Assembly (NCBI GenBank): GCA_043800535.1
Contig: JAZDMV010000023.1
Location: 111,186 to 175,185, forward strand
DNA: 64,000 nt
From: a bacterium
GTDB lineage: Bacteria > Patescibacteriota > Minisyncoccia > Portnoybacterales > GWB1-42-6
Direction of reading: 5' to 3'
The position numbers and the translations under genes were made by a program. The notes beneath the pieces are model-generated. The model ran no database searches and was not told the origin of the DNA. It saw nothing but the letters and a program-made list of their open reading frames with translations. Below, piece after piece: positions 33,569-53,632 of this stretch; within the stretch, counting starts at the first letter, position 1; the number at the start of each line of letters is the position of its first letter.

Positions 33569-34534
33569 TTAAATAATTTTTCTAAAATATTCTATTGTTT
33601 TTTTAAGCCCCCCTTCAAGCGGAATTTTCGGCTGCCAGCCCAGCATCTTTTTGGCCAAGGAAATATCGGGCCGCCGCTGTTTCGGGTCGTCGGAAGGCAA
33701 CGGCTTAAAAACAATTTTGCTTTTTGAACCGGTCAATTTAATTACTTTAGCTGCTAATTCTTTTATGGCGAACTCATTCGGATTGCCAAGATTAACCGGC
33801 CCGACGAAATTTTCCTCCTTCATCATCAAAATCAGCCCTTTGATCAAATCGTCTATGTAACAAAAACTTCTTGTCTGGCTACCATCGCCATAAATTGTAA
33901 TTGGATCTCCTTTCAATGCATGAAAAATAAAATTCGGCACCGCCCTTCCGTCATTATGGCTCATTCTTGACCCATAGGTGTTAAAAATTCTGACCACTTT
34001 TATATCAACGCCGTATTCGTTCCAATAATCAAAAAATAAAGTTTCGGCACATCGCTTCCCTTCGTCATAACAGCTTCGCAAGCCGAACGGATTGACATTA
34101 CCCCAGTAACTTTCCGGCTGCGGATGAATTTCCGGGTCTCCATATATTTCAGAAGTTGAGGTTTGCAAAACCCGGCATTTTAATTTTTTAGCCAACTCTA
34201 AGGCGTTAATCGCGCCCAAGATATTCGTCTTAACGGTTTTGACGGGATCTTTCCGATACCAAATCGGGGCGGCCGGACAAGCCAAATTATAAATCTCGTC
34301 TACTTTGAAATAATAAGGTTTTTCTGCGTCATGTTTAACCAGCTTAAAACTTTTATTTTTTAAAAGATGAGCGATATTGTTGCGCGAGCCCGCAAAAAAA
34401 TTATCAAGGCAGATAACTTTATCGCCCCGCCTAATCAGATATTCGCACAAATGCGAGCCGATAAAACCGGCGCCGCCGGTTACCAAAGCGGTTTTTTGAT
34501 TTTTCGATTTTTTACCTGTCTTTTGCCTGTTCAT
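33569..34534 (-). CDS. UDP-glucuronate decarboxylase (UDP-xylose synthase)-type NAD-dependent epimerase/dehydratase
   Basis: [27 protein letters not shown] is the YxxxK motif. Strong overall similarity to UXS/ArnA-decarboxylase family members. Confidence 0.8.
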
Positions 34535-35315
34535 CTTTCTTTATAAGTTCGTCATTAATCTTCTCCGCTATTTTTAGCAACTTAAGGTCAACGCCCAAAT
34601 CATCCCCTTTTTGGATTAAGGCCTTGATATCTTTTGGTAGGCATTTACCGCCATAGCCGCGATATCCTTTATGGAAAATTTCAAGATGCGTCCGGCCGAT
34701 TCTTTTGTCAGCCGCGGCGCATTCCATCATCCGGCTATAATCTATTTTCAGGGCCTGGCAAAGATCATACATCTGGTTGGCAAAAATCACTTTCACCGAA
34801 AACCATGTATTGCCAAAATATTTGATCATTTCCGCTTCGGTAGCCGGGATAATTCTTTCAAGCGGGGCCAAGGGCAAAATTTGCATGATATCGCCGGCGA
34901 TGCTATAACTCTTTTTTGTGTAGCCGACAATCTGCCGGTCAGGATAGCGCATATCCTGATCAGCGGACAGCTCGGTCAAAAATTCAGGATTGAACAAAAT
35001 TTTGTGCCGGGGATATTTTTTCTGAAAATATTCCGTGGTGCCGGGCAAAACAGTTGATTTGATGACAACGATTCTCGGGCCATTTAACAATTTAAAGGCC
35101 TCTTCCACCGCCGACAGGTCAAATCCACCTCTTTTATCAAAAGGCGTCGGCACGCATATAAAAATGACATCTGCTTTATTGACGTCTTTTGACGAACCCA
35201 GGCCTGCGTACTTATCATACAAAAGCGGCTTTTCCCCGCTCGACTCAAAATAACGGACCATTGCTCCGCCCACCATGCCAACTCCAATAATGCCAATTTT
35301 ATGTTTTTTTATCAT
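34512..35315 (-). CDS. Nucleotide-sugar (UDP-glucose/GDP-mannose) 6-dehydrogenase family, short form lacking the C-terminal NDP-sugar-binding domain
   Basis: [33 protein letters not shown] carries the catalytic Cys motif. Only 267 aa, and it ends right after the central domain. Confidence 0.65.
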
Positions 35316-35343
35316 TGGCTTGCTTATTTGTTCGTTATTTTAT

Positions 35344-35372
35344 ATTCTAAATTGAGAAGGGCTAAAAGTCAA
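35344..35372 (-). promoter_or_regulatory. Sigma70-like promoter for the long minus-strand glycan operon
   Basis: Minus strand reads TTGACT, a 17-nt spacer, then TAGAAT. It lies about 25 nt upstream of the 35315 start codon. Confidence 0.4.
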
Positions 35373-35375
35373 TTT

Positions 35376-36521
35376 ATGGACCAGACGAAAAAAAGAATCC
35401 TATATCTAATAACCCAATCAAATTTTGGCGGCGCCCAAAAATACGTTTTTGATTTGGCGACCAATCTAGATAAGCGTGATTTTGATGTGGCGGTGGCAGC
35501 TGGCGGCAATGGCGAACTTTTTTCTCGTCTTGGGGCAGCGGGAATCAAGGTTTTCGAGCTCAAATGGCTACGCCGTTCAATCCTCAACCCAATAGCCGAC
35601 TTAATGGCTTATTTTGAGATTAAAAAACTGCTTGAAACCTGGCAGCCGGATGTACTCCATCTTAATAGCTCAAAAATCTCGGTTTTAGGCGCTTTAGCCG
35701 CCCGCAACCTGCCTATAAAAGTTATCTACACAGTTCATGGCGTTGTTTTTAAAGGGTCTTTCTCCTGGCTGGCAAAAAGGTTTTTCCTTTGGGCCGAAAC
35801 TTGGACCGCCCAATTCAAACACAAGATCATCTGCGTTTCCGAATACGACCGCGCTCTTTGGCAAAGGCATTGCGTTGCTCCGCCAGAAAAATTAATCACC
35901 ATCCACAACGGCATAGATTTAAACATGAATTTTCTGCCCAAAGACCAGGCGCGAAAAATCATTTTTAATAATTGCGCGCTGCCGGACAATTGTCATATCG
36001 TCGGCTGGCTCGGCTATTTTTACCCTGAAAAGAATCTTCTTACTTTGCTTACCGCCGCCGAGCTCCTTTTGCCTGTTCAAAGGACTAAACGCAAAAACGT
36101 AATTTTTGCCATTATCGGCAACGGGCAACTGGAAAAGGAGTTAAAAGCAAAAGTAAAAAATTCCGGCCTGCAGGACAAAATCCTGTTTTTTGGCGCAATT
36201 CAGGAAGCCAAACAATATATCAAGGCCTTTGATGTTTTAACTTTACCCTCTACCAAAGAAGGCCTGCCCTACACAATTATGGAAGGGATGGCCGCCGGCG
36301 TGCCAATTGTGGCAAGCCGCGTTGGCGGTATACCGGAAATGATAACTGACAATTTCAACGGATTCTTAATTTCGCCAAGAGACCCAGAAGCATTAGCCGA
36401 AAAAATAATGCAGATCATTGAAAACCCGGCGCTCGCCCGCCAGTTTTCCCAAAATTCGCTCCAGCGCGTTAAGGAATTTTCTCTGGAAAAAATGACCATG
36501 CAAACCCAGGCGTTGTATTAA
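35376..36521 (+). CDS. Glycosyltransferase family 4 (divergently transcribed)
   Basis: RILYLITQSNFGGAQKYVF. EGLPYTIMEGMAAGVPIVASRVGGIPEMI. The start is taken at MDQTKK (the six-frame ORF starts at 35301). Confidence 0.8.
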   Translation: MDQTKKRILYLITQSNFGGAQKYVFDLATNLDKRDFDVAVAAGGNGELFSRLGAAGIKVFELKWLRRSILNPIADLMAYFEIKKLLETWQPDVLHLNSSKISVLGALAARNLPIKVIYTVHGVVFKGSFSWLAKRFFLWAETWTAQFKHKIICVSEYDRALWQRHCVAPPEKLITIHNGIDLNMNFLPKDQARKIIFNNCALPDNCHIVGWLGYFYPEKNLLTLLTAAELLLPVQRTKRKNVIFAIIGNGQLEKELKAKVKNSGLQDKILFFGAIQEAKQYIKAFDVLTLPSTKEGLPYTIMEGMAAGVPIVASRVGGIPEMITDNFNGFLISPRDPEALAEKIMQIIENPALARQFSQNSLQRVKEFSLEKMTMQTQALY

Positions 36522-37192: not shown

Positions 37193-40100
37193 TCACTCAA
37201 CCTGTCCGCTGGTATAGTAAACTTGATAATTCTGCGCACCGCCGTAAAAGACGAGACGCAAAATATTCTGAGCGTCTATCACTCCCCTTGCCCACCTGAC
37301 GTAAAACGGAAATTCAAGAATTTTTCTGGGTTGCCGCCACCGGCCACCTTCTCTTTGCAAAACCATATACATTTCATAATTAACTCCGTTGTTGGCACAA
37401 AAAATCAAATACGGCTTACCCGAACTATTCAAAATTAATTCCGGCAAACTTAGAATTTCTGCGGGGTCGCCCAATGAAAAAACTTGCACTGTTGAGGTAG
37501 CAATACCGTCAAATTCTATCATGCGAATCTCGCGAACCCTCCATTCCCAACTAATTAAAAGCTTGCCCTCTTTATTAAATATCATTTCCGGCTTTTCACC
37601 GAGCGACCACACCTCGCTGAAGTTAAAAATTTTCCGTGCTTCGCTCCAGCCAAAACCATCCTGATTATTAAATGCATAATAGATGCCGTCACAAGCCCCA
37701 CTCTGGCAGCGATACCAGACCGCATGCAATTTCCCATTTCCGTCTAAAACTATATTTGGCGTAACGCCATAATCAGAATCAATAATTTTTTCAATAGCCT
37801 CCGCAAACGAACCGTCTGCGCCGAGCTTTCTATAAAGTATTGCCGAAACGTATGAAGTCGTGGAGACTGTGCCTTGCCAAATAATATGAGTGCTGCCAGT
37901 TTGATCAATTACGCCAGACGGCGAAAAATTATTACGGCCGTCTCCGGAAACATTCTGCACCGCCTCCCAAACGCCAGCGTTATAGCGCGAATAAAAAACA
38001 TCAAAACCCGGCGGGCTGCCCCAGGGCCGCGGTTTCACTTCCCCGTCAAAAATGACACTCACATTGTTTTCTCTTATAAAGATTTGCGGCGGATAGCTCC
38101 ACGGACCAAATTCGCTTCCGATGTTTTCAATCTCGCCCCAGCTGCCACCGCTATTTTTATTTGAAACAGCAATAAAAGTATTCTCTGTTGTATAAGCAAA
38201 ATGCCAAATAACCGATGGCCTGCTTTCGCTGTTTAAAACAATCCCCGGCAAAACAGAAGTTGTTGTTGTCGCATTGCCCGAAATTATTTCCGGCTCAGCC
38301 AAAGAGATTGGGAATATTACAGAAGTCGTTGAAGCGACATTACTGAAAACACAATAATCCAAATTATCACAGGCCGCAATCCTGTAATAATAATCTGTTT
38401 CTGATTCTAATGTGGTGTCACGAAAATTTGTCGCGCTAATATTATCTGTGACACTCGTCGTCGCAAATGAATTATCATAAGACCGGATCACTTTATATTT
38501 TTCCAGGCCCGGCAGGGCGCTCGCTGTCCATTCAAGCAAAGTTGATGTCGCGGTTGTTTCTTTGACGGGATAAAGATAGAAAAATTCCAAATTGAAAACA
38601 CTGTTTTGGGATTTTGGAGTACCATTTATTGCCCGGCCGTCCGCGTTAATGCCCGAACGCGTGCTGGTGCTATTACTTTTCCAATTCCCAGGCACATCCC
38701 AGGCCAAATAAGGATTTACGCGTTCCATGCTCAAGTAGTGCGGGCCAGCCGTGCCTGCTGGCCAGCCGATTGAAAAATCAGCCCAATCAATTATCCCGCC
38801 AGTATTATCTATAAGGCGCAAATTTTCTCCAGAGTTTGATAGACCGCTCCCGCCAAAACTATGTGCTAAATCAGCCACTATGTCACTAACCGTGCCATCG
38901 TCTCCGCGTTCAATTAAATAATATGATCTTGGCGCTATCGTATTTTGCAAATTTGCCACAGTGGTCGTGGCGCCTACTACCTCCGCTATTTGCCAACCGG
39001 TTAAATCTATTGTTCCGTCCGTTTTATTATAGAGTTCTATCCACTCGTCAGCCGAAGTCGAAGCGCTTGTCCCTGCCCAGGCAATTTCGTTAATAACGAC
39101 GGGATAAAAATTTATTGACGCGGCAACTTCCTGCCATTCGCCTGCGCTGCTGCTTGCGTTAGTAGCGCGTGCCCGAAAATAATAAATTGTTAAATCCTGC
39201 GACCCCTCAAAAATTTTGCTTTCGCTCGTTGTCGCAATTTCCCAATCCTGCCAAACAATAGCCGAGCTTGAGCCAATTTTGTATTGAACGCTATAGGACG
39301 CAACGTCTGTTGATGAACTATGCCAATTGACGTCAAAACTTCGCGCTGCATTTTTGTAATCCGAAAGCCAAATTGAAATTTCGGGCGGCGAACTGCTATT
39401 TTCATCTGGCTCTTCTGATTCATCTTGCGTTCCTGACTGTTCATCTCCTATTTCATCGGAGCTACTGCTCCGATGAAAAATAGCTCGCTCATGTAGCGGG
39501 CTTGATGTCGCTTTTGGTAAATTTAATTTAAAAATCTGTTCTGAAATTTGCGGTGTTTCTGGTGCAAAAACCTCTTCTGTTATTTGCGGCTGTTGCGGCA
39601 AATTACCGCTAGAATCGGTTTGGATGACATTGGCCGGCATTATTGGTTTTTGCGGAGCAGCTGTTCCGAGAACTAAATTTTTTGACGTCTGCGCTGATGT
39701 TGCGGCCGGCGGCGAACTGACCACCGATGGCTTAGCAACCTGACCCGTATCGCCTTGGGAAACCTGCGTCTGCGTTGAAAAAAACAAAGATGCAAATAAG
39801 CCAGAAACACCATTGTATGTTGTGCCCCAGGCCGACGATATCTGACCAAAAATGTCCTGTATCCCCGGCCAAATTTTTATAAACTCTCCATATGGAGAAA
39901 ATAATGGAGTCAGCTCGCGCGCCGAAAGAATGGCGGTCAAGCCGGTTGTAAACTTAAGCATGCCATTTGAAACATTCGGCGGCGGCTTTAATAAATTTCT
40001 GTCTTTTTCCGCTTTGGCGACTTCTTCGTGAAAAATTCTGATAACCTCCGTTCCGGCTAAGACGGCCTGTTTGGAAAGAAGACGCCAATAGGAGGACAGG

Positions 40101-41011
40101 ACTACTTTTTGGCTCACTAAAATTTCTCCGCTTCTCATGTCTTTTTCTGCCATTATATATTCTTCGCCTTTAGAATCTATTCTATAATATTCCTCAAAAA
40201 TTCCTACAATTTCTTTTCTGTCAGCGATTATTCTTTTATATGCGACGTCATTAATGCTATTAGCGCTAAAAAAATTCTCATTTGAGTATCTGGCAACTTT
40301 CACAAAGCAATCGTCTAAATTTGAACAATAAAAGTTTTCCTGCCGTAAATTTAAATTGTTAATATGCGATAGATCAGTATTCTCTTTTGCCCATTTTTCA
40401 TACGGCTCGCCCGGATCGCCGGCCAGGCCATCAACATGCGTGTCCTGCCGCGTGTGCGCCGGAACTGACATATCTTCTATTAGATGCAGAATATGGCCAA
40501 GCGACTTAAGTGCCTCTTTTTTGTCACCGTTGACGTAATCATAGACAGCTTTCTCAAAAGTCCGGTTGCCTTCGTAGCGCGCGTATTGGCTCTGCAAGCC
40601 CTGGTTATGCAGCCAATCAAGAGCCGAAACAGCACTTTCGGCTGAAAGCCCGATTTCCGACAAAAGCCGCACCATTGCCGGCGAAACACTGCCCAGCCGC
40701 TCGCCCTGCCAGCCAAGACCAGTTGTCGGGTCGTAAAAATGGTTAATCCAGCGTGGCGGTGTATCTTCATTTCGGGCGCCTTCGGCTATCAAGTTGATTT
40801 CCTCGCTGCTTAACGGCCTACCTAATTGGCCATAAATTTCTGCCGACTTTCTAGCTAATGAAGAATGGGTCGGATCCGGCTCATATGCCTGCGCGTAAAA
40901 AAATACAACCGCAAAAACCAACAAAAAAAGCCAAACGCAAAAGCATGGCTTCTTAAATAATGCCCTCCTCATTATTACATAAGCAAAACGTAAATTTTTT
41001 ATTTTGTGCAC
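37193..41011 (-). CDS. Large secreted multidomain protein: N-terminal Zn-dependent phospholipase C-like domain, fibronectin-III-like and lamin-tail (LTD) domains, C-terminal beta-rich repeats
   Basis: N-terminal signal/TM segment. NHFYDP and LHLIEDMSVPAHT match the Zn-PLC signature HxxxDxxxPxH. The LTD motif is NEIAWAGTS...EWIELYN...LTGW...NSGENLRLID. Confidence 0.65.
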   Translation of the reverse strand: MHKIKNLRFAYVIMRRALFKKPCFCVWLFLLVFAVVFFYAQAYEPDPTHSSLARKSAEIYGQLGRPLSSEEINLIAEGARNEDTPPRWINHFYDPTTGLGWQGERLGSVSPAMVRLLSEIGLSAESAVSALDWLHNQGLQSQYARYEGNRTFEKAVYDYVNGDKKEALKSLGHILHLIEDMSVPAHTRQDTHVDGLAGDPGEPYEKWAKENTDLSHINNLNLRQENFYCSNLDDCFVKVARYSNENFFSANSINDVAYKRIIADRKEIVGIFEEYYRIDSKGEEYIMAEKDMRSGEILVSQKVVLSSYWRLLSKQAVLAGTEVIRIFHEEVAKAEKDRNLLKPPPNVSNGMLKFTTGLTAILSARELTPLFSPYGEFIKIWPGIQDIFGQISSAWGTTYNGVSGLFASLFFSTQTQVSQGDTGQVAKPSVVSSPPAATSAQTSKNLVLGTAAPQKPIMPANVIQTDSSGNLPQQPQITEEVFAPETPQISEQIFKLNLPKATSSPLHERAIFHRSSSSDEIGDEQSGTQDESEEPDENSSSPPEISIWLSDYKNAARSFDVNWHSSSTDVASYSVQYKIGSSSAIVWQDWEIATTSESKIFEGSQDLTIYYFRARATNASSSAGEWQEVAASINFYPVVINEIAWAGTSASTSADEWIELYNKTDGTIDLTGWQIAEVVGATTTVANLQNTIAPRSYYLIERGDDGTVSDIVADLAHSFGGSGLSNSGENLRLIDNTGGIIDWADFSIGWPAGTAGPHYLSMERVNPYLAWDVPGNWKSNSTSTRSGINADGRAINGTPKSQNSVFNLEFFYLYPVKETTATSTLLEWTASALPGLEKYKVIRSYDNSFATTSVTDNISATNFRDTTLESETDYYYRIAACDNLDYCVFSNVASTTSVIFPISLAEPEIISGNATTTTSVLPGIVLNSESRPSVIWHFAYTTENTFIAVSNKNSGGSWGEIENIGSEFGPWSYPPQIFIRENNVSVIFDGEVKPRPWGSPPGFDVFYSRYNAGVWEAVQNVSGDGRNNFSPSGVIDQTGSTHIIWQGTVSTTSYVSAILYRKLGADGSFAEAIEKIIDSDYGVTPNIVLDGNGKLHAVWYRCQSGACDGIYYAFNNQDGFGWSEARKIFNFSEVWSLGEKPEMIFNKEGKLLISWEWRVREIRMIEFDGIATSTVQVFSLGDPAEILSLPELILNSSGKPYLIFCANNGVNYEMYMVLQREGGRWRQPRKILEFPFYVRWARGVIDAQNILRLVFYGGAQNYQVYYTSGQVE

Positions 41012-41066: not shown

Positions 41067-41603
41067 CTACAAACTGTAAATTTTCCAGATATTAGCGTAC
41101 TTGTTTAATTGAAATGTCACCGTGCCGCTATATGTGCCCGCCTCTAAAATTGCATTCCTGCCAAGAAGTTCGTCAAAATACTCTCTATCTTTTTCCACGA
41201 TAAAAGTAAACGAATATTGTTTCCCATCCTTATCCCAATACTCCTCCTCTTTCATCTCCTCCCATTTCGGCAAATCATCAATATACTTCTGCAATTCGCC
41301 TTTGGCGGCCAAGTCCTGCAATTTGGCTTTTTGCCCGTCTTCTTTCTGAAAATAAAAATAGCGGCTGGCTGATTCCAGGTCTCCACGTTTCAAAGCCGCG
41401 ACATACAAATCGTACGTTTCCTGCGGCGTTGCGCCGCCGTATGTGTCGCTCTTAAAATAACTAGTCAGCTCATTCTCAACTGCCTGCCAGTCACGGCCGA
41501 TCTTCCAGCTTTGATAATAAGGCCAGGCAAAAAAATAAACCACCCAGATAAAGGCGGCCGCAATTAAAATAAAAATCCCGCTTGCAATAATTTTTTTTCG
41601 CAT
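41067..41603 (-). CDS. Hypothetical membrane-anchored protein
   Basis: Single N-terminal TM segment (IIASGIFILIAAAFIWVVYFF) then a charged soluble domain. The start is taken at the internal MRKK. Confidence 0.4.
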   Translation of the reverse strand: MRKKIIASGIFILIAAAFIWVVYFFAWPYYQSWKIGRDWQAVENELTSYFKSDTYGGATPQETYDLYVAALKRGDLESASRYFYFQKEDGQKAKLQDLAAKGELQKYIDDLPKWEEMKEEEYWDKDGKQYSFTFIVEKDREYFDELLGRNAILEAGTYSGTVTFQLNKYANIWKIYSL

Positions 41604-41723
41604 ATTTATTTTCAATCTAAATATAAACCAGCTGATTTTTCCTGCCTCTATTCTAAAACCAATGTCCACCGCTGTCTATCCCCAATTCTTTCTTCCCGCG
41701 GCCACCAATTTCGCAATCTTGCA

Positions 41724-41772
41724 ATCGCACATAAACTCCCGCGCTCGGGAGCACGGAAGTTTATGTCTGATC
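41724..41772. repeat. Palindromic repeat family A copy 2
   Basis: aatcgcacataaactcccgcgctcgggagcacggaagtttatg. It shares the core with copies at 37131 and 42320 and overlaps the stop of 41761-42303. Confidence 0.5.
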
Positions 41773-42303
41773 GTTGATTTTGATAGTTTTGAAAGCCGAA
41801 TTTATTTGCTTATACAGGGCTGATTTTTTATCCATTTTAGCAATCGCAGCTTTTAATCTGTTTTTATTACGGTAATTCGCCGCCTTAATTATTTCTTCCA
41901 AAACAATCTGCGGCCAGTAGTAAGATGGGTACCTCTTTTTTATTTGTTCAAAAGGCGTTTTCTCTCCGTAATTTTTTTTCACTCCTTTATTCTTTTTTGT
42001 CCTTTCTAGTACTAAACGATATCCTTCGCCTGAATATTTTAACCATTCTCCCACCCGCGCTATTTTTGATGCTCCGACTTTCAAATGACGCATTATCTCT
42101 GTATAACCAAATCCGTCAAGCAATAATTCTGCTATCTTTAACCTTTTAGCCAGCATTTCCAGCTCCTGCACAGTGATTAGATCGCGCATAAATTCTGCCG
42201 CTTCAACAGAATCTCGCAGAGACGCCAAAGCTTCACAGAACTGTATCGTCAATCTCTCGATCTCTTCCTTGCTAAGCTTTGAATTTATACTAAATTTATT
42301 CAT
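41761..42303 (-). CDS. TrpR/YerC/YecD-family helix-turn-helix DNA-binding protein
   Basis: EFMRDLITVQELEMLAKRLKIAELLLDGFGYTEIMRHLKVGASKIARV is the TrpR-like HTH. The start is taken at MNKFSIN. Confidence 0.55.
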   Translation of the reverse strand: MNKFSINSKLSKEEIERLTIQFCEALASLRDSVEAAEFMRDLITVQELEMLAKRLKIAELLLDGFGYTEIMRHLKVGASKIARVGEWLKYSGEGYRLVLERTKKNKGVKKNYGEKTPFEQIKKRYPSYYWPQIVLEEIIKAANYRNKNRLKAAIAKMDKKSALYKQINSAFKTIKINDQT

Positions 42304-42319
42304 TTTAACGCCCAAATAT

Positions 42320-42368
42320 AATCGCACAGAAACTCCCACGCTCCCGAGCACGGGAGAAGACGTGCGAT
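42320..42368. repeat. Palindromic repeat family A copy 3
   Basis: atcgcacagaaactcccacgctcccgagcacgggagaagacgtgcgat. It lies between the stop of 42397-44652 and the start of the TrpR-like gene. Confidence 0.45.
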
Positions 42369-42396: not shown

Positions 42397-44652
42397 CTAG
42401 AGGCCGGAAGCTTTCAGAAACTGATCAACGTAATCTTTTTGCGAGGGGTCGATCTCAACCACTTTCAAAGCCGCTTCTTTCGCCTTGTCTCGCTGTCCGT
42501 CTGCCAGATAACTGTCTGCCAAAGCGGCATAGATGTCCGCGTTTTGCGGCGAGAGCTGCAGGCCTTTCAATAAACAAGAGATGGAACGACCAAGATCGTT
42601 ATTGTTCCGCAGAATCATCCCCAGTCTTAAATAATTGCTGGCGGTCAGGGCGTCAGGCCCGAATCTTTGCTGAATATCGGCGAGCTTCGCTTCGCCGTCC
42701 TGTATCCTGCCAATCGCAAAATACATCAATGCTAAATTCCAATGAGGATCAAGAATTTTATCGTTCAGGGCGATCGCTTTTTTGAAAAGCTCCAGCCCCT
42801 CGTCGATTTTGCCAAGCCGCAGTTTCGTCTCCCCAAGCCCGAAATAGAGAAGTTCTTTTGTCGGGCTAAGTTTTAAGGTGTCAGAAAAAATTTCTTCAGC
42901 GCGCACAAGGCGGCTGGCATCCATTGGCACGGCGGCAAGATTCAATTCACCGATGCTCACGGCATAACGGGCGTCCTGCGGCCTTTCTTTTATATTTTTG
43001 TCGCCTTCCTCAAGCGCCAAACGGACAAAATCATCCACCGGCCCTTTATTCTGATATTTGTCGTAACTAGTCATCAGATTTTTTGCTATGTCAAAAAGCT
43101 GAAGCCGCACCTCAAACCGGCCAAAAGTCCCGTAGCTCAATGCTTTTCTAAAATTAGCGTCAACCGCCTGCAGGCTTTCCTGCTGGGCGGCTAAGGCCTT
43201 TATGCCCCAGATCCCCGCCAAAGCCGGCTTAATGTTCAAAAAATAACCAAAGAAAATAAGAACGACAGCCACTGCCACCTGCAGAAAAACATTTGGCCTG
43301 ATAGGATGCGGAGTCGCGACAGCGCGTTTCTCTGATTTACCAATCCAGTCAATAAACGCCAAGAAAGTAAAAAGTGGCAAATAAGAGTAAATCATATCAA
43401 AAACGAAAAAGTCCTGCGCCAGATATCCAAGCGGCAAGATCGCAAAAAGCGCGGCGTTCAGAAAATCAATTCTTTTTTGTTTATAGGCGCGCCAGATAAT
43501 GACCAGAACCAAACCAAAAATAGAAAGAAAACTCAAAAATCCCAAAAAACCAGTTGTAACAAGCGTGTCAAAAACAATGTTGTGCGCCCGGTCAAACCAG
43601 TTCTCAACCGGATAGAGCTGCGGATCGTAGAATTTATTAAACACCACGTTATAGTTTTCCCAGCCCCAGCCCAAGATCGGCCTCTCCTTGACCCCTTCCC
43701 AGCTCATTCCCCAGGCCAGAAGCCGTGTCTGGGAAGTGGTCTCGCTTGCAGAGATATTTGCCAAACGCCGCAGGGTATAGGAGTTCCGGACCCATCCCGA
43801 ATTTTTGAAAACAAAAACTGATGCGGAAAACAGGACAAAACAAATTAAGATCACGGCAGAAATTCTTTTCAGTTTTTTCCTGATTGTAGCAAAAGCAGGC
43901 GTTTCTTCGACGCTTCTCGGCCAAAAAATCATGGCCACAAGGAACAGAATAAGCGAAGCGCCAAAAGCCAGCAAACCGCCTCTGGTCTGCGTCCAGAAAA
44001 GGATCACAAACGCAAAAAGGAAAGCGGCCGCGTAATAGATCCTGGCCAAATTTCGGCGCCGCTGAAAATACATAAAAACGATGAAAAACAGAAGAAACAA
44101 AAGATAGGCGGCAAAATAAGCACCGTTGCCAAAAGTCGCCGAAATTCTGCCAACACCGGCCAGAAAAAATCCCTGAACTCCCAGTTTTTGGAAAAGACCG
44201 ATAAAGCAAAGCGCCAGGCCAGCTGCGATAAAAAAGTCAAAAACCATCAGCCAGTCCTTTTTGGTCTTAAAAACAGAGCTCAAGATCACAAAAAGCGCAA
44301 AATAATGCAGCATGGTGATAAATCCGGTCATTCTTTCATACGAACTCCAGAAGCTTAGGAAAAAATCAACTCCCAAAACGCCGCTCAAAAAAACAATGAA
44401 CATAAAAACGGCGACCACCCAAAAAAGGCGCGAAAGCCGCGGCCGGAATTCCGGGCGATCAAACATCAAAAGAAGCCAGGCAAAAAAAGCGATTTCAACC
44501 AGAACCTGGAAAAGCGCGGTTTTGGGAAAAACAAAAGGAAAAATAAAAGCGTCGCTGACAAAAAGCGGCGTGAAAAAAGAAGCGATAACGGCCGCCTTAA
44601 CAATAAACAGCAAGATTGAATTTTTTGTCCCATTGGAAATTTGGTTGTTCAT
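42397..44652 (-). CDS. O-antigen ligase (Wzy_C) family membrane protein with C-terminal TPR repeats
   Basis: About 12 TM helices. FWTQTRGGLLAFGASL is the Wzy_C loop motif. The C-terminal roughly 250 aa carry TPR-like repeats (ALNDKILDPHWNLALMYFAIGR...). Confidence 0.7.
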   Translation of the reverse strand: MNNQISNGTKNSILLFIVKAAVIASFFTPLFVSDAFIFPFVFPKTALFQVLVEIAFFAWLLLMFDRPEFRPRLSRLFWVVAVFMFIVFLSGVLGVDFFLSFWSSYERMTGFITMLHYFALFVILSSVFKTKKDWLMVFDFFIAAGLALCFIGLFQKLGVQGFFLAGVGRISATFGNGAYFAAYLLFLLFFIVFMYFQRRRNLARIYYAAAFLFAFVILFWTQTRGGLLAFGASLILFLVAMIFWPRSVEETPAFATIRKKLKRISAVILICFVLFSASVFVFKNSGWVRNSYTLRRLANISASETTSQTRLLAWGMSWEGVKERPILGWGWENYNVVFNKFYDPQLYPVENWFDRAHNIVFDTLVTTGFLGFLSFLSIFGLVLVIIWRAYKQKRIDFLNAALFAILPLGYLAQDFFVFDMIYSYLPLFTFLAFIDWIGKSEKRAVATPHPIRPNVFLQVAVAVVLIFFGYFLNIKPALAGIWGIKALAAQQESLQAVDANFRKALSYGTFGRFEVRLQLFDIAKNLMTSYDKYQNKGPVDDFVRLALEEGDKNIKERPQDARYAVSIGELNLAAVPMDASRLVRAEEIFSDTLKLSPTKELLYFGLGETKLRLGKIDEGLELFKKAIALNDKILDPHWNLALMYFAIGRIQDGEAKLADIQQRFGPDALTASNYLRLGMILRNNNDLGRSISCLLKGLQLSPQNADIYAALADSYLADGQRDKAKEAALKVVEIDPSQKDYVDQFLKASGL

Positions 44653-44802: not shown

Positions 44803-47046
44803 CTATTGCCCCATTTTTTTCCTGACGACTTCAATAAATTTATCCACGGTTTCTTTGGTAGAAGGATTAAGCTCGGCTGATTTTTGCGCTGCTTCAATCG
44901 CCTTTTGGTATTGTCCAGTTTGATAATAAGCGTTGGCCAGAGAGGAATAATAGAGATAGTTGGTTGTGCCGTTCTTTATCACAAGATTAAGCCAGCGAAT
45001 TTCATTCTCTTTGCTTGAAGCCGGCGCAAAAAGCGGCATAAACCTGTCTAAATTTTCCTGGCCCACGTGATGTCCCATATCAATGGCTTTGACAAATGCC
45101 TCTTTGGCATTTTCAAAGTCCTGTTTCTGGAATAGGATCTTTGCCAATTCCCAATAGGAACCGGGGACTTTATCGTTCAGCGCGATCGCTTTTTCAATGA
45201 CACTCTGCGCCGCGTCAAATTTTCCGGCAAACATCAGGTTTTCCATCAAAATATAATAAAGCGTGACGCGGTTGGGGGAGCTGGCGATCGCTTTATCAAT
45301 ATAGATTTTGGCTTCGTCCCTGAAGCGCGTGTCCAGATCAGTGGCATATCGGACGTCAAGCAGTTCGGCCAGCTTATAGTTGTAATAAGTATCGTCCGGC
45401 ACATATCTTAAATTCTGCTTGTGCAGATCAATGGCAAAGTCCAGATCAAATTTCTGGTTGGGGTTTTGGGCCACGGCCGTGTAATAATTATGGATCGCGT
45501 TGGCCGCCACGGTTTTCAGATCCAGGTCCCAGAAAGTGTTATAGGAAACTGATTTTTTCAGATAGCTCATGCCAGCCTGATACGCCTGCTGCTGCTGGCC
45601 TTCATAGGGCTGGAAAAGATAGACCTGGGCCATGACACTGTCTTTGAAGGCCTTATATGGCTTTACGACAAAAAGATTCGTTGAATAGTAAAGACCTGCC
45701 CCAAAAATGATTGCGGCCACAATAACTAAAGCGGGCCGAAATTTTAGCGCCGAAACTTTTTGTGCGCCTGGCTCCTGTTTTTCGTCAGCCCAAAATTTCC
45801 CGACAAAAACTAAGAGTACAGACAAACCAAGCAAGGCGGGCAGAGAGTCAAACAAAAACAGATTCTGGACAAAATACGCGATGACTAGGCCGCCAAAAGC
45901 ACCCAAAAAGACAAAATCCTTGTCTTTTTTGTAGAGCTTGACTACGCAGTAAAAAACGCAGGACAAGAATACAAGATATGTTAGCAGCCCTAAAATTCCG
46001 GTTGCGGCCAGGTGCTCAATTATGACATTGTGCGCTCGGTCAAAATATTCTTCAGCCGCAAAATTATAGTATCTGGCATCAAAATATTTATTGAACGGCT
46101 GGGTAAAATTTTCATATCCCCAGCCAAGCACTGGCTTATCCAAAAACCCCAGCCAACCGGCTTTCCAGGCGATAAGACGGCCTTGGATAGTTGCGTCTCC
46201 GGATGAAAAATGCACGAGCCGATACAAATAGGCACTGTTTTTTATGAAGCCTTGGTTCTGCAGCGCGAAAAACATGCCATACACCGCCACCAAAAAAAGA
46301 AATCCGGCAACCAGGCCCCTGCGCAATTTAGGACTGCCCAAATTTTTGACGATCGCAAAGAAAGCGAAAACAAAACCGACGGCAATTCCCAAAAAAGCAC
46401 CGCGGGTCCCAGTCAGAAAAATAGCCAGGCCGTGAATCGCAAAAACGCCGCCATAAACAACACGCCAGGACCATTTTGAATTTTTCAGGCAGAGATATGC
46501 GGAGAAGAACAAGCCAAAAATAAGATAGGCCGCCAGTTTGGCCGCGTTGCCAAACATGGCAAAAATTCTATTCTCGCCGGCGATGCTGGTCAGCCCAAGT
46601 TTCTGCAAAAGCCCATAGACGGCAACAATAGTGCTGGCCGCCAAAAAAACATTAAGCAAAAAGTTGACTTCTTTTTTTTCACCAAAGATGCTCGTGCCGA
46701 CCAGAAACAAAACAAAGAAATAAAGCATGCCAAACAATCCCGTCATTCTTTCCACGTCCCCCCAGAAACTTAAGAACGGACTGGCGCTAAAAACAGTTGA
46801 AGCCGCCAAAGCCAAAAGATAAAGGCCGAAAGACCCGAGCAAAATGCTGAAGCGCGGCCGTTCTTTTGGAAAAAGCAAAATAAAAACCAGCCAGGCAAAA
46901 AATAAGATGTTGACAACTAGACGGAAAAATAAAGTGCTTGAAGAAACATAAGGGAAAAAAAGATAACGGTCAATCACCAGAGGAGAAAATAAAGAAACAA
47001 AAAATAAAATTTGGAGGATTCGTTTAAAGATATTTTGTTTGGGCAT
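44803..47046 (-). CDS. O-antigen ligase (Wzy_C) family membrane protein with C-terminal TPR repeats (tandem paralog)
   Basis: FLTGTRGAFLGIAVGF is the Wzy_C motif. TPR-like C-terminus (AIALNDKVPGSYWELAKILFQKQDFENAKEAF). Confidence 0.7.
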   Translation of the reverse strand: MPKQNIFKRILQILFFVSLFSPLVIDRYLFFPYVSSSTLFFRLVVNILFFAWLVFILLFPKERPRFSILLGSFGLYLLALAASTVFSASPFLSFWGDVERMTGLFGMLYFFVLFLVGTSIFGEKKEVNFLLNVFLAASTIVAVYGLLQKLGLTSIAGENRIFAMFGNAAKLAAYLIFGLFFSAYLCLKNSKWSWRVVYGGVFAIHGLAIFLTGTRGAFLGIAVGFVFAFFAIVKNLGSPKLRRGLVAGFLFLVAVYGMFFALQNQGFIKNSAYLYRLVHFSSGDATIQGRLIAWKAGWLGFLDKPVLGWGYENFTQPFNKYFDARYYNFAAEEYFDRAHNVIIEHLAATGILGLLTYLVFLSCVFYCVVKLYKKDKDFVFLGAFGGLVIAYFVQNLFLFDSLPALLGLSVLLVFVGKFWADEKQEPGAQKVSALKFRPALVIVAAIIFGAGLYYSTNLFVVKPYKAFKDSVMAQVYLFQPYEGQQQQAYQAGMSYLKKSVSYNTFWDLDLKTVAANAIHNYYTAVAQNPNQKFDLDFAIDLHKQNLRYVPDDTYYNYKLAELLDVRYATDLDTRFRDEAKIYIDKAIASSPNRVTLYYILMENLMFAGKFDAAQSVIEKAIALNDKVPGSYWELAKILFQKQDFENAKEAFVKAIDMGHHVGQENLDRFMPLFAPASSKENEIRWLNLVIKNGTTNYLYYSSLANAYYQTGQYQKAIEAAQKSAELNPSTKETVDKFIEVVRKKMGQ

Positions 47047-47174: not shown

Positions 47175-47528
47175 TTATATTTCGTTATATATTTTTTCTA
47201 CTACATTCTCAATATTTTTCAAAACGTCCAAGTTTGTAAATCGCAAAATGCGTAAATTTAATCTATTCAAAGATTCTTCCCGTTTTTTATCTTCTTCTAT
47301 ATTTTTATTTTCGTAATGCTGTCCCCCATCAATTTCTATCACAAGCCTAGCATCTTTGCAATAAAAATCAGCGATATAATTGTCTATCGGTTTTTGTCTG
47401 TAAAATTGAAAGTCCTTTATCTGCCGCCTTCTTATCTTTGACCATAATAATTTTTCTGCGTCTGTAGAATTTCTACGCAACTGACGGCTTAGTGATTTAA
47501 GATTTTCGCCGTATGAGAAAAATTCCAT
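47175..47528 (-). CDS. DUF559 endonuclease-domain protein (restriction-endonuclease-like fold)
   Basis: ADFYCKDARLVIEIDGGQH is the signature DUF559 motif. 117 aa. Confidence 0.65.
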   Translation of the reverse strand: MEFFSYGENLKSLSRQLRRNSTDAEKLLWSKIRRRQIKDFQFYRQKPIDNYIADFYCKDARLVIEIDGGQHYENKNIEEDKKREESLNRLNLRILRFTNLDVLKNIENVVEKIYNEI

Positions 47529-47834: not shown

Positions 47835-50800
47835 TTACGGAGTAAGAGTGATAGATGGCAATGGCAAACTCTTTACGAGGAAGCCGTTAAACCAGTCAGC
47901 TGAAACACTGCCCGAAGTGCTCACATGAGGTATAACGCTGCGGTCTGACCAGATGAAGTAGTAGAACGTTGAAGCGTCGCCAGTGTTGCTGTCATCCAAT
48001 CCCCAATAAGTACTGGCTGGATAGTTGGCATACAACTTGGTGCGTTCAAGGTTCGTTGTATCTTTGGTCAGAGTTAAGGTCACGCTGTCGGAGCTGGTCG
48101 TGCCCTTGTCAAACAATCTTGGCGTGGCCTTCAGAGTAAACTCTGTGGCCGTTGTGACTGTTTTTTCCGTCGGGAAAGCGACTATCAAGCCCTTGGTCGT
48201 GTCTGCTTCTGTAATACCGCTGTTTCCGGTCGCGTCACCGGTTGTGCCGTCGTCCTTAATCGTGGCTGCAGCCGTAATGTCAGTAGCGCCTTCGTAGAGC
48301 AACCAATAATCCAGTTCCAGGGTGTCCACTGTCGGACCAGCATCAGTCCAGGCCACGTCAAATCCGATCTGTTTCAAAGAAACAGAGCCGCCGGCCGAAG
48401 GAGTGACTGTGAATTTCGCCACTTCGCCTGAAACGTTGTTTGTGATGGTCTTGCCGGACGAACTGGTCAGGGCTAATGTCGGATAGCTCTTATAGACAAC
48501 AACAGCATTGCCTTCGCGGTCAGTGCTTTCATAGGTAGGCGTGCCGTTTGAGTCATAGATATAGAGCGTATCCAGCGTGGTTGAAGCATTCAAGGCCGCG
48601 TTAGTCGCGCCAGTGCCAATTGTGTTAAGCCCGAGCTTAACGGTCAGGGTCTTGGTTGTGTTGGAAGGAATCTGCCAGGACAAACCAGTGGTCGTGGAAA
48701 TACCGCTGCCGTCAACCACTGAGCCACCCGGATTCAGCAGGGTTGCACCGTCGTACAAGAGAACCGAATTGACAACTGCCGCCTGGGTCACGTTGCGGAA
48801 TTTGATAGCAATCTGATTAACGGTGTAAGTGTCGCTGGCTGCCGTTAGATCAAAGTTGGCTGCTTCAATTGTCTGGCCGCCGTAGGCCAGTTGGTCAAGC
48901 GGGGTCTCGGTAGCGGCGGTTGTGAATGAACCACTGCCCCAGGTGATGGTTTGACCCAGAACCTCGCTTGCGTTAGCAGTAGCTCCGGAGTTTGCGGCTG
49001 TGCCGCCAACTGCGGTTCTGATGCCTGTAGTGCCTGAAATTGTGGTGTTGGTGGTGCAGTAGAGCGCAATAGGAATCGTGGCGCCGGGCTGCAACGTATA
49101 GCTAACTGAAAAGCTCTCTGAAGTTGAAGAGGTGAGTGTGCTCTTGAGCGACGTTGTCTTGTCAGCGTAGGTGTAGTAACAATTTGACAGGTCAGCGACG
49201 CCAAGGATTGAGTTCTCCGCGTCCTCAAAGTCAGGCGATATGCTTGTCAGATTGACCGGTTCGGTTGTCCCGGACGTCAGCCGCCATTCGCCCAATTTAA
49301 AGGCGGTCTTTGGCGGAACTGCGGTTTGACTGGTATAGCCGGTGTATTTAACTATGGTTATGGTCCCCTCTTTAACGGTCAAAACGTTGCCTGATTTTAT
49401 CGTGGCGGGAGAAACAAAATAAGTGCCGGAGACCGTTCTCTGCGCATTACTGACTGCGCTTGCAAGAACATCGCCGCGCACTTGCCAGTCAGCTACCACC
49501 TGGTTTGTTCCATCGTTGTCATAAATGTCCATTCTGATCTCTAAAACTCTATCAGTGCCAGGAGTGACAACTAAGGAAGAACCAAGAGAAAAGCGGGTAT
49601 ACTGGGCTGTCACATCATTGTCAGATGAGATAGATTGTGTGCTGCCGACCTGAATGCCGTCAGCGAACAAAGCGCCGTTCCGCCATGTGACTGCATCGGT
49701 ATTGGCTGTAGCCGAAGAAGTATAGATCGCAATATCAAGCGACTCAATCTTAATCGGTTCGCCCAGCGCCTTTAAGTCAAATTTAGCTATGGTAGCGCTG
49801 CTGCCGCCATTGGTAACATTGCCCGAAGGCGAAGTAGTTGCCTTGGATATCGTCAAACTGCCGGCCGCAATGGTTTGGGCAGTTGAGCTCTGGGCAGAAA
49901 ATGTGGTGCTAGCTGCCTGAACGAGAATTGTTGAGGCATATTCACTATCAGTGAAAATAACATCTGCCGCGTATCTCAATGACAAGCTAGTGGTTCTGGT
50001 TGAACCACCAACGATATCTACCAAAACTTTGAACTCGCGGGCGCCTGTCTGCAGTGTCTTGGGCGAGCTGGTTATGTCAAAAGCGACATATCCATTAGCA
50101 TCCATGGCCGCCACAGTTGAACCAACCTGAACGCCGTCAACTAACAGCTTGAAATTGGCCAGGTCGGCTGTATTAACCGAACCGATCTGTCTGAATGTTA
50201 TGTATTTCAGATAAACGGATCTGGTTGAAATAGTGACTGTGCTCTGCCAGAGATTGAATTCGGTCTGAGGGCTTGGCGTGCCATCAGATGAAGGCGTCAC
50301 TGTGCCAAAACTGACTCCGCCCAAAGTACCAGACGCGATAGTGTGGAAATTACCGTTGATCGGGAAACTGCCGGTGACAGTCGCGCCATCGGTCACGATA
50401 TAGCTGCTTTCAAACATGCTGACTCCAATCGTTTCGCCGGCTGTGCCGTCAATGTCTGATTTGACAGTGATGGTTTTGGTTGTGCCGGCAGGGATCGTGA
50501 AGATTCCCGTGCTGTTATTCCAAGATACGATGTTTGAGCTAACCGAAGCGTTGTCGGTTATTCTGGTGTTACCATCGTAAAGATAAACATTCGTCAAAGT
50601 GGCATCAGCTGAAACGCCGATTCTCTTGACCTTGAAGGTGGTCACCTTAACAGCGCCGTTTGAAGGAGCCGTCAAATTGAACGAAGCCAAAGGATTAGCC
50701 GCCGAACCGTCAACAATGGTTGTTGATGGCTGGGTGTTTGGAGACAGGGTCACTTGTAAAGTGGTGCCCGGCGTTATGCCGCTGCCTTCAGTTGACAAAG

Positions 50801-51308
50801 TGCAAGTCGTGTCATCGTTGCTTGCAGTGTAGCTGTCACGGTCAACAGTGTTAATCTGATAAACTGAATCCCAATCAAACAAGGCGTTGCTTGAATTGCA
50901 AGCAGTAAACTGTTCTGCGGTCATGTTGACCCAGTGTTTGCCGCCATTATCGCTATTGGCAACTGGGGCCAGGTTATAGACCTTTGGGTCGCCAACGGCT
51001 CTCACCAAAGTGGAAATCGTGAACTGATCCATTGTCGCCTGGCTGACGGTCTTGACATTGCTCCAGCTAAGATGTCCGTAGCTATTGAAAACGCTCGGGC
51101 TAAGAATCAATCTCTTGAAAGCCTTGGCTCCGAGATATTTTGCAATATAAACATCAGGACTGGCGGCCGTCTTTATAAGCGCGCCCTCGGCGATGTTGTC
51201 AATGACAGCGTTAGCCATCATTGGAGCAAGCATACCGATACCGCTCATAGTCGCGATCGTTGCGATAGAAGCCGTAACAGAAATAAGTTTTTGAATTTTT
51301 TTACTCAT
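47835..51308 (-). CDS. Large (1157 aa) Thr/Ser/Gly-rich secreted cell-surface protein with repeated beta-rich (Ig-like) regions; candidate S-layer/adhesin-like glycoprotein
   Basis: N-terminal signal peptide (ISVTASIATIATMSGIGMLAPMMANA). Extreme T/S/G/A/V-rich composition with repeated TxTV-type beta-strand patterns. Its own promoter, leader and terminator. Confidence 0.6.
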   Translation of the reverse strand: MSKKIQKLISVTASIATIATMSGIGMLAPMMANAVIDNIAEGALIKTAASPDVYIAKYLGAKAFKRLILSPSVFNSYGHLSWSNVKTVSQATMDQFTISTLVRAVGDPKVYNLAPVANSDNGGKHWVNMTAEQFTACNSSNALFDWDSVYQINTVDRDSYTASNDDTTCTLSTEGSGITPGTTLQVTLSPNTQPSTTIVDGSAANPLASFNLTAPSNGAVKVTTFKVKRIGVSADATLTNVYLYDGNTRITDNASVSSNIVSWNNSTGIFTIPAGTTKTITVKSDIDGTAGETIGVSMFESSYIVTDGATVTGSFPINGNFHTIASGTLGGVSFGTVTPSSDGTPSPQTEFNLWQSTVTISTRSVYLKYITFRQIGSVNTADLANFKLLVDGVQVGSTVAAMDANGYVAFDITSSPKTLQTGAREFKVLVDIVGGSTRTTSLSLRYAADVIFTDSEYASTILVQAASTTFSAQSSTAQTIAAGSLTISKATTSPSGNVTNGGSSATIAKFDLKALGEPIKIESLDIAIYTSSATANTDAVTWRNGALFADGIQVGSTQSISSDNDVTAQYTRFSLGSSLVVTPGTDRVLEIRMDIYDNDGTNQVVADWQVRGDVLASAVSNAQRTVSGTYFVSPATIKSGNVLTVKEGTITIVKYTGYTSQTAVPPKTAFKLGEWRLTSGTTEPVNLTSISPDFEDAENSILGVADLSNCYYTYADKTTSLKSTLTSSTSESFSVSYTLQPGATIPIALYCTTNTTISGTTGIRTAVGGTAANSGATANASEVLGQTITWGSGSFTTAATETPLDQLAYGGQTIEAANFDLTAASDTYTVNQIAIKFRNVTQAAVVNSVLLYDGATLLNPGGSVVDGSGISTTTGLSWQIPSNTTKTLTVKLGLNTIGTGATNAALNASTTLDTLYIYDSNGTPTYESTDREGNAVVVYKSYPTLALTSSSGKTITNNVSGEVAKFTVTPSAGGSVSLKQIGFDVAWTDAGPTVDTLELDYWLLYEGATDITAAATIKDDGTTGDATGNSGITEADTTKGLIVAFPTEKTVTTATEFTLKATPRLFDKGTTSSDSVTLTLTKDTTNLERTKLYANYPASTYWGLDDSNTGDASTFYYFIWSDRSVIPHVSTSGSVSADWFNGFLVKSLPLPSITLTP

Positions 51309-52934: not shown

Positions 52935-53001
52935 CCTAATAAATAAGACGGAAAAACGCCTATTCTATTACACCTGGGACACGAACAAAATAAGCATATA
53001 A

Positions 53002-53046
53002 ATCCCCACACCATGGGCTTACGCAGAGTTTTTCTGGTGTGGGGAT
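53002..53046. repeat. Palindromic hairpin element with a 12-bp stem atccccacacca/tggtgtggggat (copy 2 of 2)
   Basis: The stem is identical to the one at 36540-36582. The 21-nt loop is different. It lies between the sigma and anti-sigma genes. Confidence 0.5.
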
Positions 53047-53104
53047 AAACAAAAACAGTCCCGACGTGATATCGGGACCGCTTTAAATCCATAGTTTATC
53101 CTCA

Positions 53105-53632
53105 TTACCGATTATTAGCCCTTTTTGCCTCTAAAACGGCCTTTAGAGCCCCTATTGCCCTGGAAAGCGAGGTTCTGACCGCTCCTTCTGATTTACCCCA
53201 AATTTCACAGATTTCAGGCACGCTGAAGTCGTCAATATAGTGCCAGATAATAAGCTCCTGATATTCGTCTTTCAGCTCTCGCAAGCATTCTCTGACCTTA
53301 TCCAATTCCAGGCCTGTTTCCGCGCCACCAATCACTTCTTCCTCTGATTCGCTTAAATCCAATTCGGAAGTCGTTTCCAAAGATATTGGCAATTTGGAAA
53401 CGTTCCGGAAATTATCGGCAATCATATTTCGGCAAATTTGGTAGACCATTGCCGATAAATTTCCAATTTCTTTTCCGCCTTTTATGTACTGCCACATCTT
53501 CATAAAGGCCTCTGCTGATATATCCTGAGCGACTTGTTCCGAGCCAACCCGAAAATAAACATAGCGATAAATCTTCGTTATGCTTTGATCGTAAAATTCA
53601 AGAAATTTTCGTTCATTTTCCGCTAATGTCAT
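53105..53632 (-). CDS. RNA polymerase sigma-70 family ECF sigma factor
   Basis: Region 2 (FYDQSITKIYRYVYFRV...AEAFMKMW). Region 4 HTH (ELIIWHYIDDFSVPEICEIWGKSEGAVRTSLSRA). 175 aa. Confidence 0.8.
   Translation of the reverse strand: MTLAENERKFLEFYDQSITKIYRYVYFRVGSEQVAQDISAEAFMKMWQYIKGGKEIGNLSAMVYQICRNMIADNFRNVSKLPISLETTSELDLSESEEEVIGGAETGLELDKVRECLRELKDEYQELIIWHYIDDFSVPEICEIWGKSEGAVRTSLSRAIGALKAVLEAKRANNR

Follow-up and report, generated by a model that had tools for sequence, protein, structure and literature searches.

What does a putative secreted, phospholipase C (PLC)-like protein do in a bacterium from a lineage that is unable to synthesize lipids or nucleotides? The question is raised by a 64,000-nucleotide stretch of DNA, referred to here as the window, from a member of the Portnoybacterales (Patescibacteriota; Minisyncoccia; Portnoybacterales; GWB1-42-6; GenBank assembly GCA_043800535.1, contig JAZDMV010000023.1, positions 111,186 to 175,185), in which the minus-strand gene at 37193..40972 encodes a secreted multidomain protein of 1259 amino acids (aa). 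Patescibacteria, also named the Candidate Phyla Radiation (CPR), constitute a large share of bacterial diversity. According to a 2024 review (PMC11665869) they lack lipid synthesis, a mechanism for uptake or breakdown of lipids has not been identified and the acquisition of nucleotides is unresolved. The analysis described below indicates that the protein belongs to a PLC-like family that is predicted, from profiles and structural models, to form a distinct branch of its superfamily, and that its gene is strictly linked to that of a membrane-anchored partner; the recognition of this branch and of this partner is what appears to be new. We tentatively describe the protein as a secreted zinc phosphodiesterase that would act on membrane phospholipids.

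The segment 37193..41011 exactly bounds an open reading frame (ORF) of 1272 codons on the minus strand, which opens with a GTG at 41011. The true start is probably the ATG at 40972 (M14 of the ORF), and the product from M14 is identical to NCBI MFH0852583.1 (P0070 in our set), a protein labeled only "lamin tail domain-containing protein". Residue numbers used here count from the GTG at 41011; subtracting 13 gives the NCBI number. A HMMER scan of 1.84 billion representatives (50% clustering) with the N-terminal profile gave 7480 representatives at E ≤ 1e-3 and 1141 at E ≤ 1e-30, for which reason the reading frame is not a chance ORF. The gene has no paralogues in the window; tblastn with the N-terminal, lamin tail and C-terminal segments found only the gene itself. 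All motifs quoted in a preliminary description of the locus are in place, i.e., NHFYDP (aa 90-95) and LHLIEDMSVPAHT (aa 175-187, H-x3-D-x3-P-x-H) in the N-terminal domain as well as NEIAW (aa 641-645), EWIELYN (aa 656-662) and NSGENLRLID (aa 726-735) in the lamin tail region. That description gave no strand and missed both the partner gene upstream and the huge conserved family to which the protein belongs. The feature itself is real; uncertainty concerns its substrate.

The catalytic domain (39977..40885, minus strand; aa 43 to ~345) displays the all-alpha fold of PLC and P1 nuclease, to which a beta-sheet insert and a long C-terminal helix have been added. When the first 377 aa were used as query, 33 relatives were found, and their alignment showed a striking set of invariant residues. 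A profile of this family matched only zinc PLCs among the PDB entries (Bacillus cereus PC-PLC and Listeria PlcB, E ~3e-4), with an alignment that covers the LGxxLHxxxDxxxPxH block and the YE motif. Comparison of the family with PC-PLC using hhalign gave a probability of 95.7% (E 1e-8), the fragments of the PC-PLC sequence agreeing with those in the PDB profile alignment; S1 nuclease gave 17.8% in the same comparison, with an alignment limited to the HxxxDxxxPxH block. An AlphaFold2 model of aa 43-350 (mean pLDDT 92, pTM 0.92) has the all-alpha PLC fold, to which a family-specific three-stranded sheet (model residues 223-249) and, at the C terminus, a long helix (model residues 260-294) are added. 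In a Foldseek search of the PDB with this model the first 17 entries were all PLC chains (E 5e-4 to 1e-2), and S1/P1-type nucleases appeared only at E>1.

In Pfam, Zn_dep_PLPC (PF00882) is the commonest match among the relatives (22 of 34, sub-threshold or marginal, best E 2.5e-6), and a precomputed match to this family is present in three of them. S1-P1_nuclease (PF02265) is absent from the 25 most frequent Pfam families at E ≤ 1 among the 34 members of the family alignment and from the match lists at E ≤ 0.001 for 113 long members; neither profile similarity to that family nor its ligand set, including the terminal HxxxD pair, was found. Because of the profile, hhalign, AlphaFold2 and Foldseek results, the N-terminal domain is assigned, on predicted grounds, to the PLC side of the PLC/P1-nuclease superfamily, and the PLC or S1-P1 fold proposed in the preliminary description is thereby borne out. 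Because the curated PF00882 threshold is not reached and one defining ligand is absent, the domain is placed on a Patescibacteria-specific branch of its own within the superfamily and is not counted as an ordinary member of PF00882.

The invariant residues point to a metal site. In 172 of 172 relatives, which share only ~25-60% identity, there is no variation at H49, D83, H91, H176, D180, H186, H192 or E205, and the same applies to E82, R87, W133 and R188; Q140 is listed together with R87, R188 and W133 among the invariant family-specific residues. In the profile-PDB and hhalign alignments taken together, D83, H91, H176, D180, H186 and E205 correspond to PC-PLC D55, H69, H118, D122, H128 and E146, respectively, with the last five pairs given by hhalign, so that all six core ligands have a counterpart. 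The candidate metal ligands are the eight residues listed first and Tyr43 with its free amino terminus. Conservation of this kind across 172 divergent sequences reads as the signature of a maintained active site.

The role suggested for Tyr43 is tied to the mode of export. In PC-PLC, alpha-toxin and P1 nuclease, residue 1 is a Trp, and its free amino group and carbonyl bind zinc. In the window protein, Tyr43 directly follows a predicted AxA-type cleavage site and H49, six residues further on, would be the counterpart of H14 in PLC or H6 in P1, in a segment that lies outside the HMMER and hhalign alignments. The signal peptide (40886..40972, minus strand; aa 14-42, MRRALFKKPCFCVWLFLLVFAVVFFYAQA) has a predicted signal peptidase I cleavage site at AQA|Y43 and includes the sole strongly hydrophobic stretch of the enzyme (aa 16-42), which agrees with the N-terminal signal or transmembrane segment noted earlier. 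Among the 172 relatives, 169 have A, S or G at position -1; a small or aliphatic residue is found at position -3, and position +1 is occupied by Tyr in 166, Trp in 4 and Phe in 2. Cleavage after AQA would thus free Tyr43.

No second hydrophobic segment or C-terminal anchor is found in the full sequence of the enzyme. A second membrane anchor, a sortase signal and a lipobox were considered and dropped, the first for want of such a segment; the sequence KKPCFC was judged not to be a lipobox. The long surface stalk of the preliminary description thus finds no evidence as an anchor. Because the signal peptide must be cleaved for Tyr43 to act as a ligand, and because there is no other hydrophobic segment, the enzyme is predicted to be released from the producer unless the partner holds it.

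The partner gene (41067..41603, minus strand) lies directly upstream and encodes a protein of 178 aa (P0174, NCBI "hypothetical protein V1845_03195"). An N-terminal transmembrane helix and a helical stalk (aa 2-51) are followed by an extracytoplasmic domain, for which the predicted structure displays the NTF2-like alpha+beta cone; the anchor is predicted to be oriented N-in, such that the NTF2-like domain faces outward. This cone is a fold that serves hydrophobic-ligand pockets and immunity proteins alike. Searches of Pfam with the partner sequence gave nothing significant (a weak DUF4878 match only), nor did a sequence search of the PDB. Conserved neighbors were identified by clustering the ORFs of the best 80 related loci and the window, i.e., 81 loci in total. 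The partner family (~170 aa) was found in 76 of them, directly upstream, on the same strand and at gaps of about -21 to +30 nucleotides. Of the five loci without an intact partner, four start at the edge of a contig and in the fifth the copy is fragmented, which leaves 77 of 77 informative loci linked. Between the two genes there is no terminator-like site, and a promoter-like site is found upstream of the partner gene (41650..41678, minus strand; TAGACA-17-TAGAAT, a consensus match only). The partner and the enzyme constitute a two-gene module conserved across Patescibacteria, and the partner probably holds the unanchored enzyme at the producer surface, shields the producer membrane, or both. 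An apparently fused, 589-aa partner in one locus (L002, 4135-5904) was rejected, as a masked run of N joins the partner ORF to a neighboring ComEA-like gene, which encodes two helix-hairpin-helix motifs and a PKD domain.

The family is large and its distribution narrow. A scan of one genome per species gave at least 571 genomes with a family member, the titles of which are overwhelmingly those of Patescibacteria and include Parcubacteria, Nomura-, Azam-, Yonath-, Lipton-, Wolfe-, Jorgensen-, Magasanik-, Sungi- and Yanofskybacteria, Paceibacterota and Minisyncoccales. All informative source names of the 33 relatives found with the first 377 aa are likewise Patescibacteria or Parcubacteria lineages, which confirms that the organism is a CPR bacterium. 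A few family contigs carry the titles "uncultured Gammaproteobacteria", "Nanoarchaeota" or "Omnitrophota" (loci L023, L024, L038, L048 and L068 among them); these are probably placeholder names or binning errors. Publicly, family members are named "hypothetical", "lamin tail domain-containing" or, wrongly, "Phospholipase D/ComEA", and the literature searched on PLC or the lamin tail domain (LTD) in combination with CPR or Patescibacteria held no description of the family and no link of such proteins to CPR bacteria.

Among the best 150 matches most proteins are 1000-1850 aa long, with the PLC-like domain at the extreme N terminus. The 113 long members, which fall among P0035-P0173, carry an LTD in 97 cases, a right-handed beta-helix (Beta_helix/NosD) in 31, fn3 in 14, and PKD, Ig or propeller domains in several, all according to Pfam. 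Because of these counts, the constant part of the family is the PLC-like domain together with the LTD, while the C terminus is variable and behaves like an exchangeable effector or receptor-binding module.

The architecture of the window protein follows the same plan. A linker of ~210 aa (39347..39976, minus strand; aa 346-555), rich in Ser, Thr, Pro, Gln and Ala and without a Pfam match, leads to a weakly supported FN3-like module (39104..39346, minus strand; aa ~556-636), which has sub-threshold matches to FN3-type Pfam families (E 0.007-0.1) and a homologous segment in 23 family members. The LTD (38777..39103, minus strand; aa 637-745) scores 57.8 bits against PF00932 (cutoff 34.3, E 1.6e-15), with a weak NCBIfam match of the region to exonuc_ExeM-GG. 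A second, borderline FN3 module (38327..38596, minus strand; aa ~806-895, Pfam match 816-882) matches the PDB entry 3mpc, "Fn3-like", at E 2.5e-5; its 24.9 bits against Pfam fn3 (PF00041) are 0.1 bit short of the cutoff of 25. Of the three domain types named in the preliminary description, the LTD is thus above its Pfam cutoff, while fn3 narrowly misses and Zn_dep_PLPC lies below.

The remainder of the protein is a C-terminal repeat domain (37196..38326, minus strand; aa 896-1272) of ~7 repeats of ~54 aa each. Comparison of the domain with itself using hhalign gave off-diagonal matches at multiples of ~54 residues (probability 96-98%), i.e., the repeat region noted earlier is real. No sequence match in the PDB and no Pfam match was found for this domain of the window protein. 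The domain is rare: four other proteins with it were found (P0034, P0120, P0072 and P0109), and a word-indexed search gave only one homologue. Degenerate [DG]G-x-x-W motifs occur at 955, 1118 and 1222, and one homologue of the domain gives a weak BNR_4 match (E 0.002). The repeats would fit seven blades, and the domain is putatively a BNR/sialidase-like beta-propeller.

These elements can be combined into a proposed mechanism. The partner would reside in the producer membrane with its NTF2-like domain outward, and signal peptidase would cut the enzyme after AQA, thereby exposing the amino terminus of Tyr43. The free terminus would complete a multinuclear zinc site with H49, D83, H91, H176, D180, H186, E205 and probably H192, such that the mature domain would become a catalytically competent zinc phosphodiesterase of the PLC branch of the superfamily. 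Its substrate would be the glycerol-phosphate bond of membrane phospholipids in a host or neighboring cell, cleaved to diacylglycerol and a phosphorylated head group. This would make the target membrane weaker and would provide lipid for a bacterium unable to make its own. The LTD and FN3 beta-sandwiches would bind the membrane or surface in the manner of the C-terminal beta-sandwich of clostridial alpha-toxin, the variable C-terminal domain, here the propeller-like repeat, would recognize a surface structure, and the partner would keep the enzyme at the producer surface, guard the producer membrane, or both.

The module can be compared with several characterized proteins. The zinc-dependent PLCs of B. 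cereus (PC-PLC, 1ah7) and Listeria monocytogenes (PlcB, 8cqm) are homologous members of PF00882, with only ~15-18% identity. They have Trp rather than Tyr at position 1 and a first His 13 rather than 6 residues from the N terminus, and both carry a propeptide, which is lacking in the window protein. Conversely, two invariant Arg residues, the sheet insert, the long C-terminal helix, ~900 further residues (linker, LTD, FN3 and propeller) and the obligatory NTF2-like partner gene are found only here. The alpha-toxins of Clostridium perfringens and C. absonum (1ca1, 1olp) have a PLAT/C2-like beta-sandwich joined directly to the catalytic domain and no partner gene, whereas in the window protein a ~210-residue linker precedes the FN3-like, LTD and FN3 modules and the repeat domain. 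The S1/P1 nucleases (5fb9, 8qjl; PF02265) show a much weaker sequence relationship to the family, in which their HxxxD pair is not kept. The ExeM-type nucleases of Shewanella oneidensis resemble the protein in that a secreted phosphoesterase is combined with an LTD (PMC6085458); in ExeM, however, the catalytic domain has the endonuclease/exonuclease/phosphatase (EEP) fold and the LTD is N-terminal, while the present protein has a PLC fold and a central LTD. Effector-immunity pairs with Imm-NTF2 (Zhang et al. 2012, PMC3482391) resemble the module in that the gene for a small NTF2-fold protein lies beside that for a secreted hydrolase, and toxin-type domains (Ntox44, SNase) are present at the C terminus of a few members of the family. 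The present partner, in contrast, is an outward-facing, membrane-anchored protein encoded upstream; it accompanies the constant N-terminal enzyme and not the variable C terminus, and it has no sequence similarity to the Imm-NTF2 families. What distinguishes the protein from all characterized relatives is the Tyr at its first position, a third metal site that is altered, the pair of invariant Arg residues, the LTD architecture and the NTF2-like partner.

Membrane phospholipid is ranked first among possible substrates because every measure of sequence and fold puts the domain nearest the PLCs, because alpha-toxin is a precedent for a PLC domain with a beta-sandwich membrane binder, and because it has been proposed for bacterial LTDs that they bring hydrolases to membranes (Mans et al. 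2004, cited in PMC6085458). It is also favored because the homologues are almost exclusively from Patescibacteria, with their lack of lipid synthesis and of an identified route of lipid uptake or breakdown (PMC11665869), and because the strictly linked partner combines an N-in anchor with a cone that serves as a hydrophobic-ligand pocket or immunity fold. The near-constant LTD, the invariance of the candidate ligands, the aromatic residue exactly at the signal peptidase site and the absence of a second hydrophobic segment are further reasons to prefer this reading. Several observations weigh against it. The domain does not reach the Zn_dep_PLPC cutoff of 26.8 bits, either in the full protein (12.1 bits, E 0.19) or in the N-terminal 377 aa (14.9 bits, E 0.027). 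The full set of zinc ligands that would be expected is kept at eight positions, but H142 of PLC, the ligand of the HxxxE pair located four residues before E146, aligns with the Gly of GEPYE, and the invariant H192 (in HTRxDxH), which may substitute for it, is the only candidate replacement. In the choline pocket of PC-PLC, composed of E4, Y56 and F66, Y56 aligns with the non-aromatic T84 and F66 with the variable W88, while E4 is unalignable. The invariant R87 and R188 line the predicted site and would suit an anionic leaving group, e.g., a nucleotide. Furthermore, the only extra catalytic domains fused in the 113 long members are nucleases, i.e., a staphylococcal-nuclease domain (SNase) in six and the polymorphic-toxin domain Ntox44 in one, the LTD is typical of extracellular nucleases such as ExeM (PMC6085458), and none of the neighboring genes apart from the partner points to lipid handling.

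Several of these points lead to the main rival, an extracellular nuclease or nucleotidase with S1/P1-like action on single-stranded DNA or RNA or on 3'-phosphonucleotides, in which the LTD engages DNA or the cell surface as in ExeM and the products feed nucleotide salvage or DNA uptake. The fused nuclease domains, the LTD, the P1-like spacing from residue 1 to the first His and the arginines in the predicted leaving-group pocket would all fit. We nevertheless consider this rival unlikely, though a serious one: sequence and fold are clearly nearer the PLCs, S1-P1_nuclease is missing from the Pfam matches listed for family members, the terminal HxxxD/E ligand pair common to nucleases and PLCs is not kept, and an extracellular nuclease has no obvious need of an outward-facing membrane partner. 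If the substrate were instead another phosphodiester of the envelope, e.g., a teichoic acid, a phosphate-linked capsular or cell-wall glycan or a glycerophosphodiester, the enzyme would serve remodeling of the producer envelope or digestion of that of the host. The variable C-terminal domains belong to folds that typically bind glycans or act on them (beta-helices, propellers, PKD/Ig), and R87, R188, W133 and Q140 differ from the substrate pockets of PLCs and nucleases alike. In addition, the gene is found amid surface-polysaccharide genes, i.e., GT4 glycosyltransferases, a UDP-glucose dehydrogenase, an epimerase and two Wzy_C-TPR proteins; this context, however, is not kept in the other loci, where the partner gene alone is kept. 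To our knowledge, no member of the PLC/P1-nuclease superfamily acts on teichoic acid, glycan-phosphate or glycerophosphodiester substrates, and we regard such an activity as improbable. The least probable alternative, to which we attach very little weight, is a non-enzymatic surface adhesin or structural protein that retains the PLC-like domain as a binding or scaffold module. Most of the protein does consist of binding-type modules (LTD, FN3 and propeller) and the classical ligand H142 has been lost, but a mere scaffold is difficult to reconcile with eight candidate ligands and an N-terminal aromatic residue that are (nearly) invariant across the divergent relatives.

Except for the partner, no gene cluster occurs in more than 12 of the 81 loci, the others being ClpB, a trypsin-like protease, a transposase-like protein and a large surface protein. 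These recurring neighbors, each found in at most 12 loci, look like residual synteny and were rejected as parts of the system. Directly upstream of the two-gene module, a protein of 196 aa with a Trp-repressor-family domain (41761-42351, minus strand; E 5.7e-17) could be a regulator; it is not among the gene clusters common to several related loci. Next to it lie tandem paralogues of ~750 aa each (42397-44652 and 44803-47046, both minus strand) with an O-antigen-ligase-like Wzy_C membrane domain and C-terminal TPR repeats, similar genes being found near the module in four other loci, and then a 117-aa DUF559 or very-short-patch-repair-like protein with an endonuclease fold (47175-47528, minus strand; E 6e-36). 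The ORF at 47835-51308 (minus strand, 1157 aa) has no Pfam match at E<0.01, and in 10 of 81 loci homologues of it (~1090 aa) lie less than 6 kb away from the gene for the PLC-like protein. The representative of this family in locus L019 has both a signal peptide and a peptidoglycan-binding-like motif at its start, with long repeats rich in Thr, Ser and Ala after them, and the product is probably a major cell-surface protein.

At 51765-53632 (minus strand), an extracytoplasmic-function-type sigma factor (175 aa) lies beside a DUF5667 protein (389 aa), which likely constitutes a sigma/anti-sigma pair. Further on are the genes for a trypsin-like protease (57299-58084) and ClpB (58084-60720). Near the module in eight other loci each, ClpB is found again, as is a membrane-anchored protein that resembles the protease and, from its sequence, is probably trypsin-like; this recurrence suggests residual synteny. 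On the other side of the module, the UDP-glucose/GDP-mannose dehydrogenase ORF at 34512-35315 (minus strand) is only 267 aa long; it covers positions 71-180 of the 187-position model of the N-terminal domain, a match of the C-terminal domain is not listed, and its end overlaps a divergent glycosyltransferase gene (35301-36521, plus strand). The ORF may be a truncated gene, a pseudogene or the result of a mis-called start. The window contains no tRNA genes.

A more far-reaching version of the phospholipid reading, which we consider rather unlikely, is that the two-gene module provides Parcubacteria-type Patescibacteria with their missing device for lipid acquisition, i.e., a new system for harvesting lipids from other cells. 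The enzyme would cut the head groups off host phospholipids, from ester and ether lipids alike because the target is the glycerol-phosphate bond, and the hydrophobic cone of the partner would capture the diacylglycerol, pass it into the symbiont membrane and keep the enzyme off that membrane. Membrane attack or nuclease activity against a host would be a plausible function. Irrespective of which substrate is the correct one, the family is a widespread and assayable candidate for lipid or nucleotide acquisition in Patescibacteria: a phospholipase would imply lipid scavenging or membrane attack, a nuclease would imply nucleotide scavenging, and either activity would bear on how episymbionts feed on or breach other cells.

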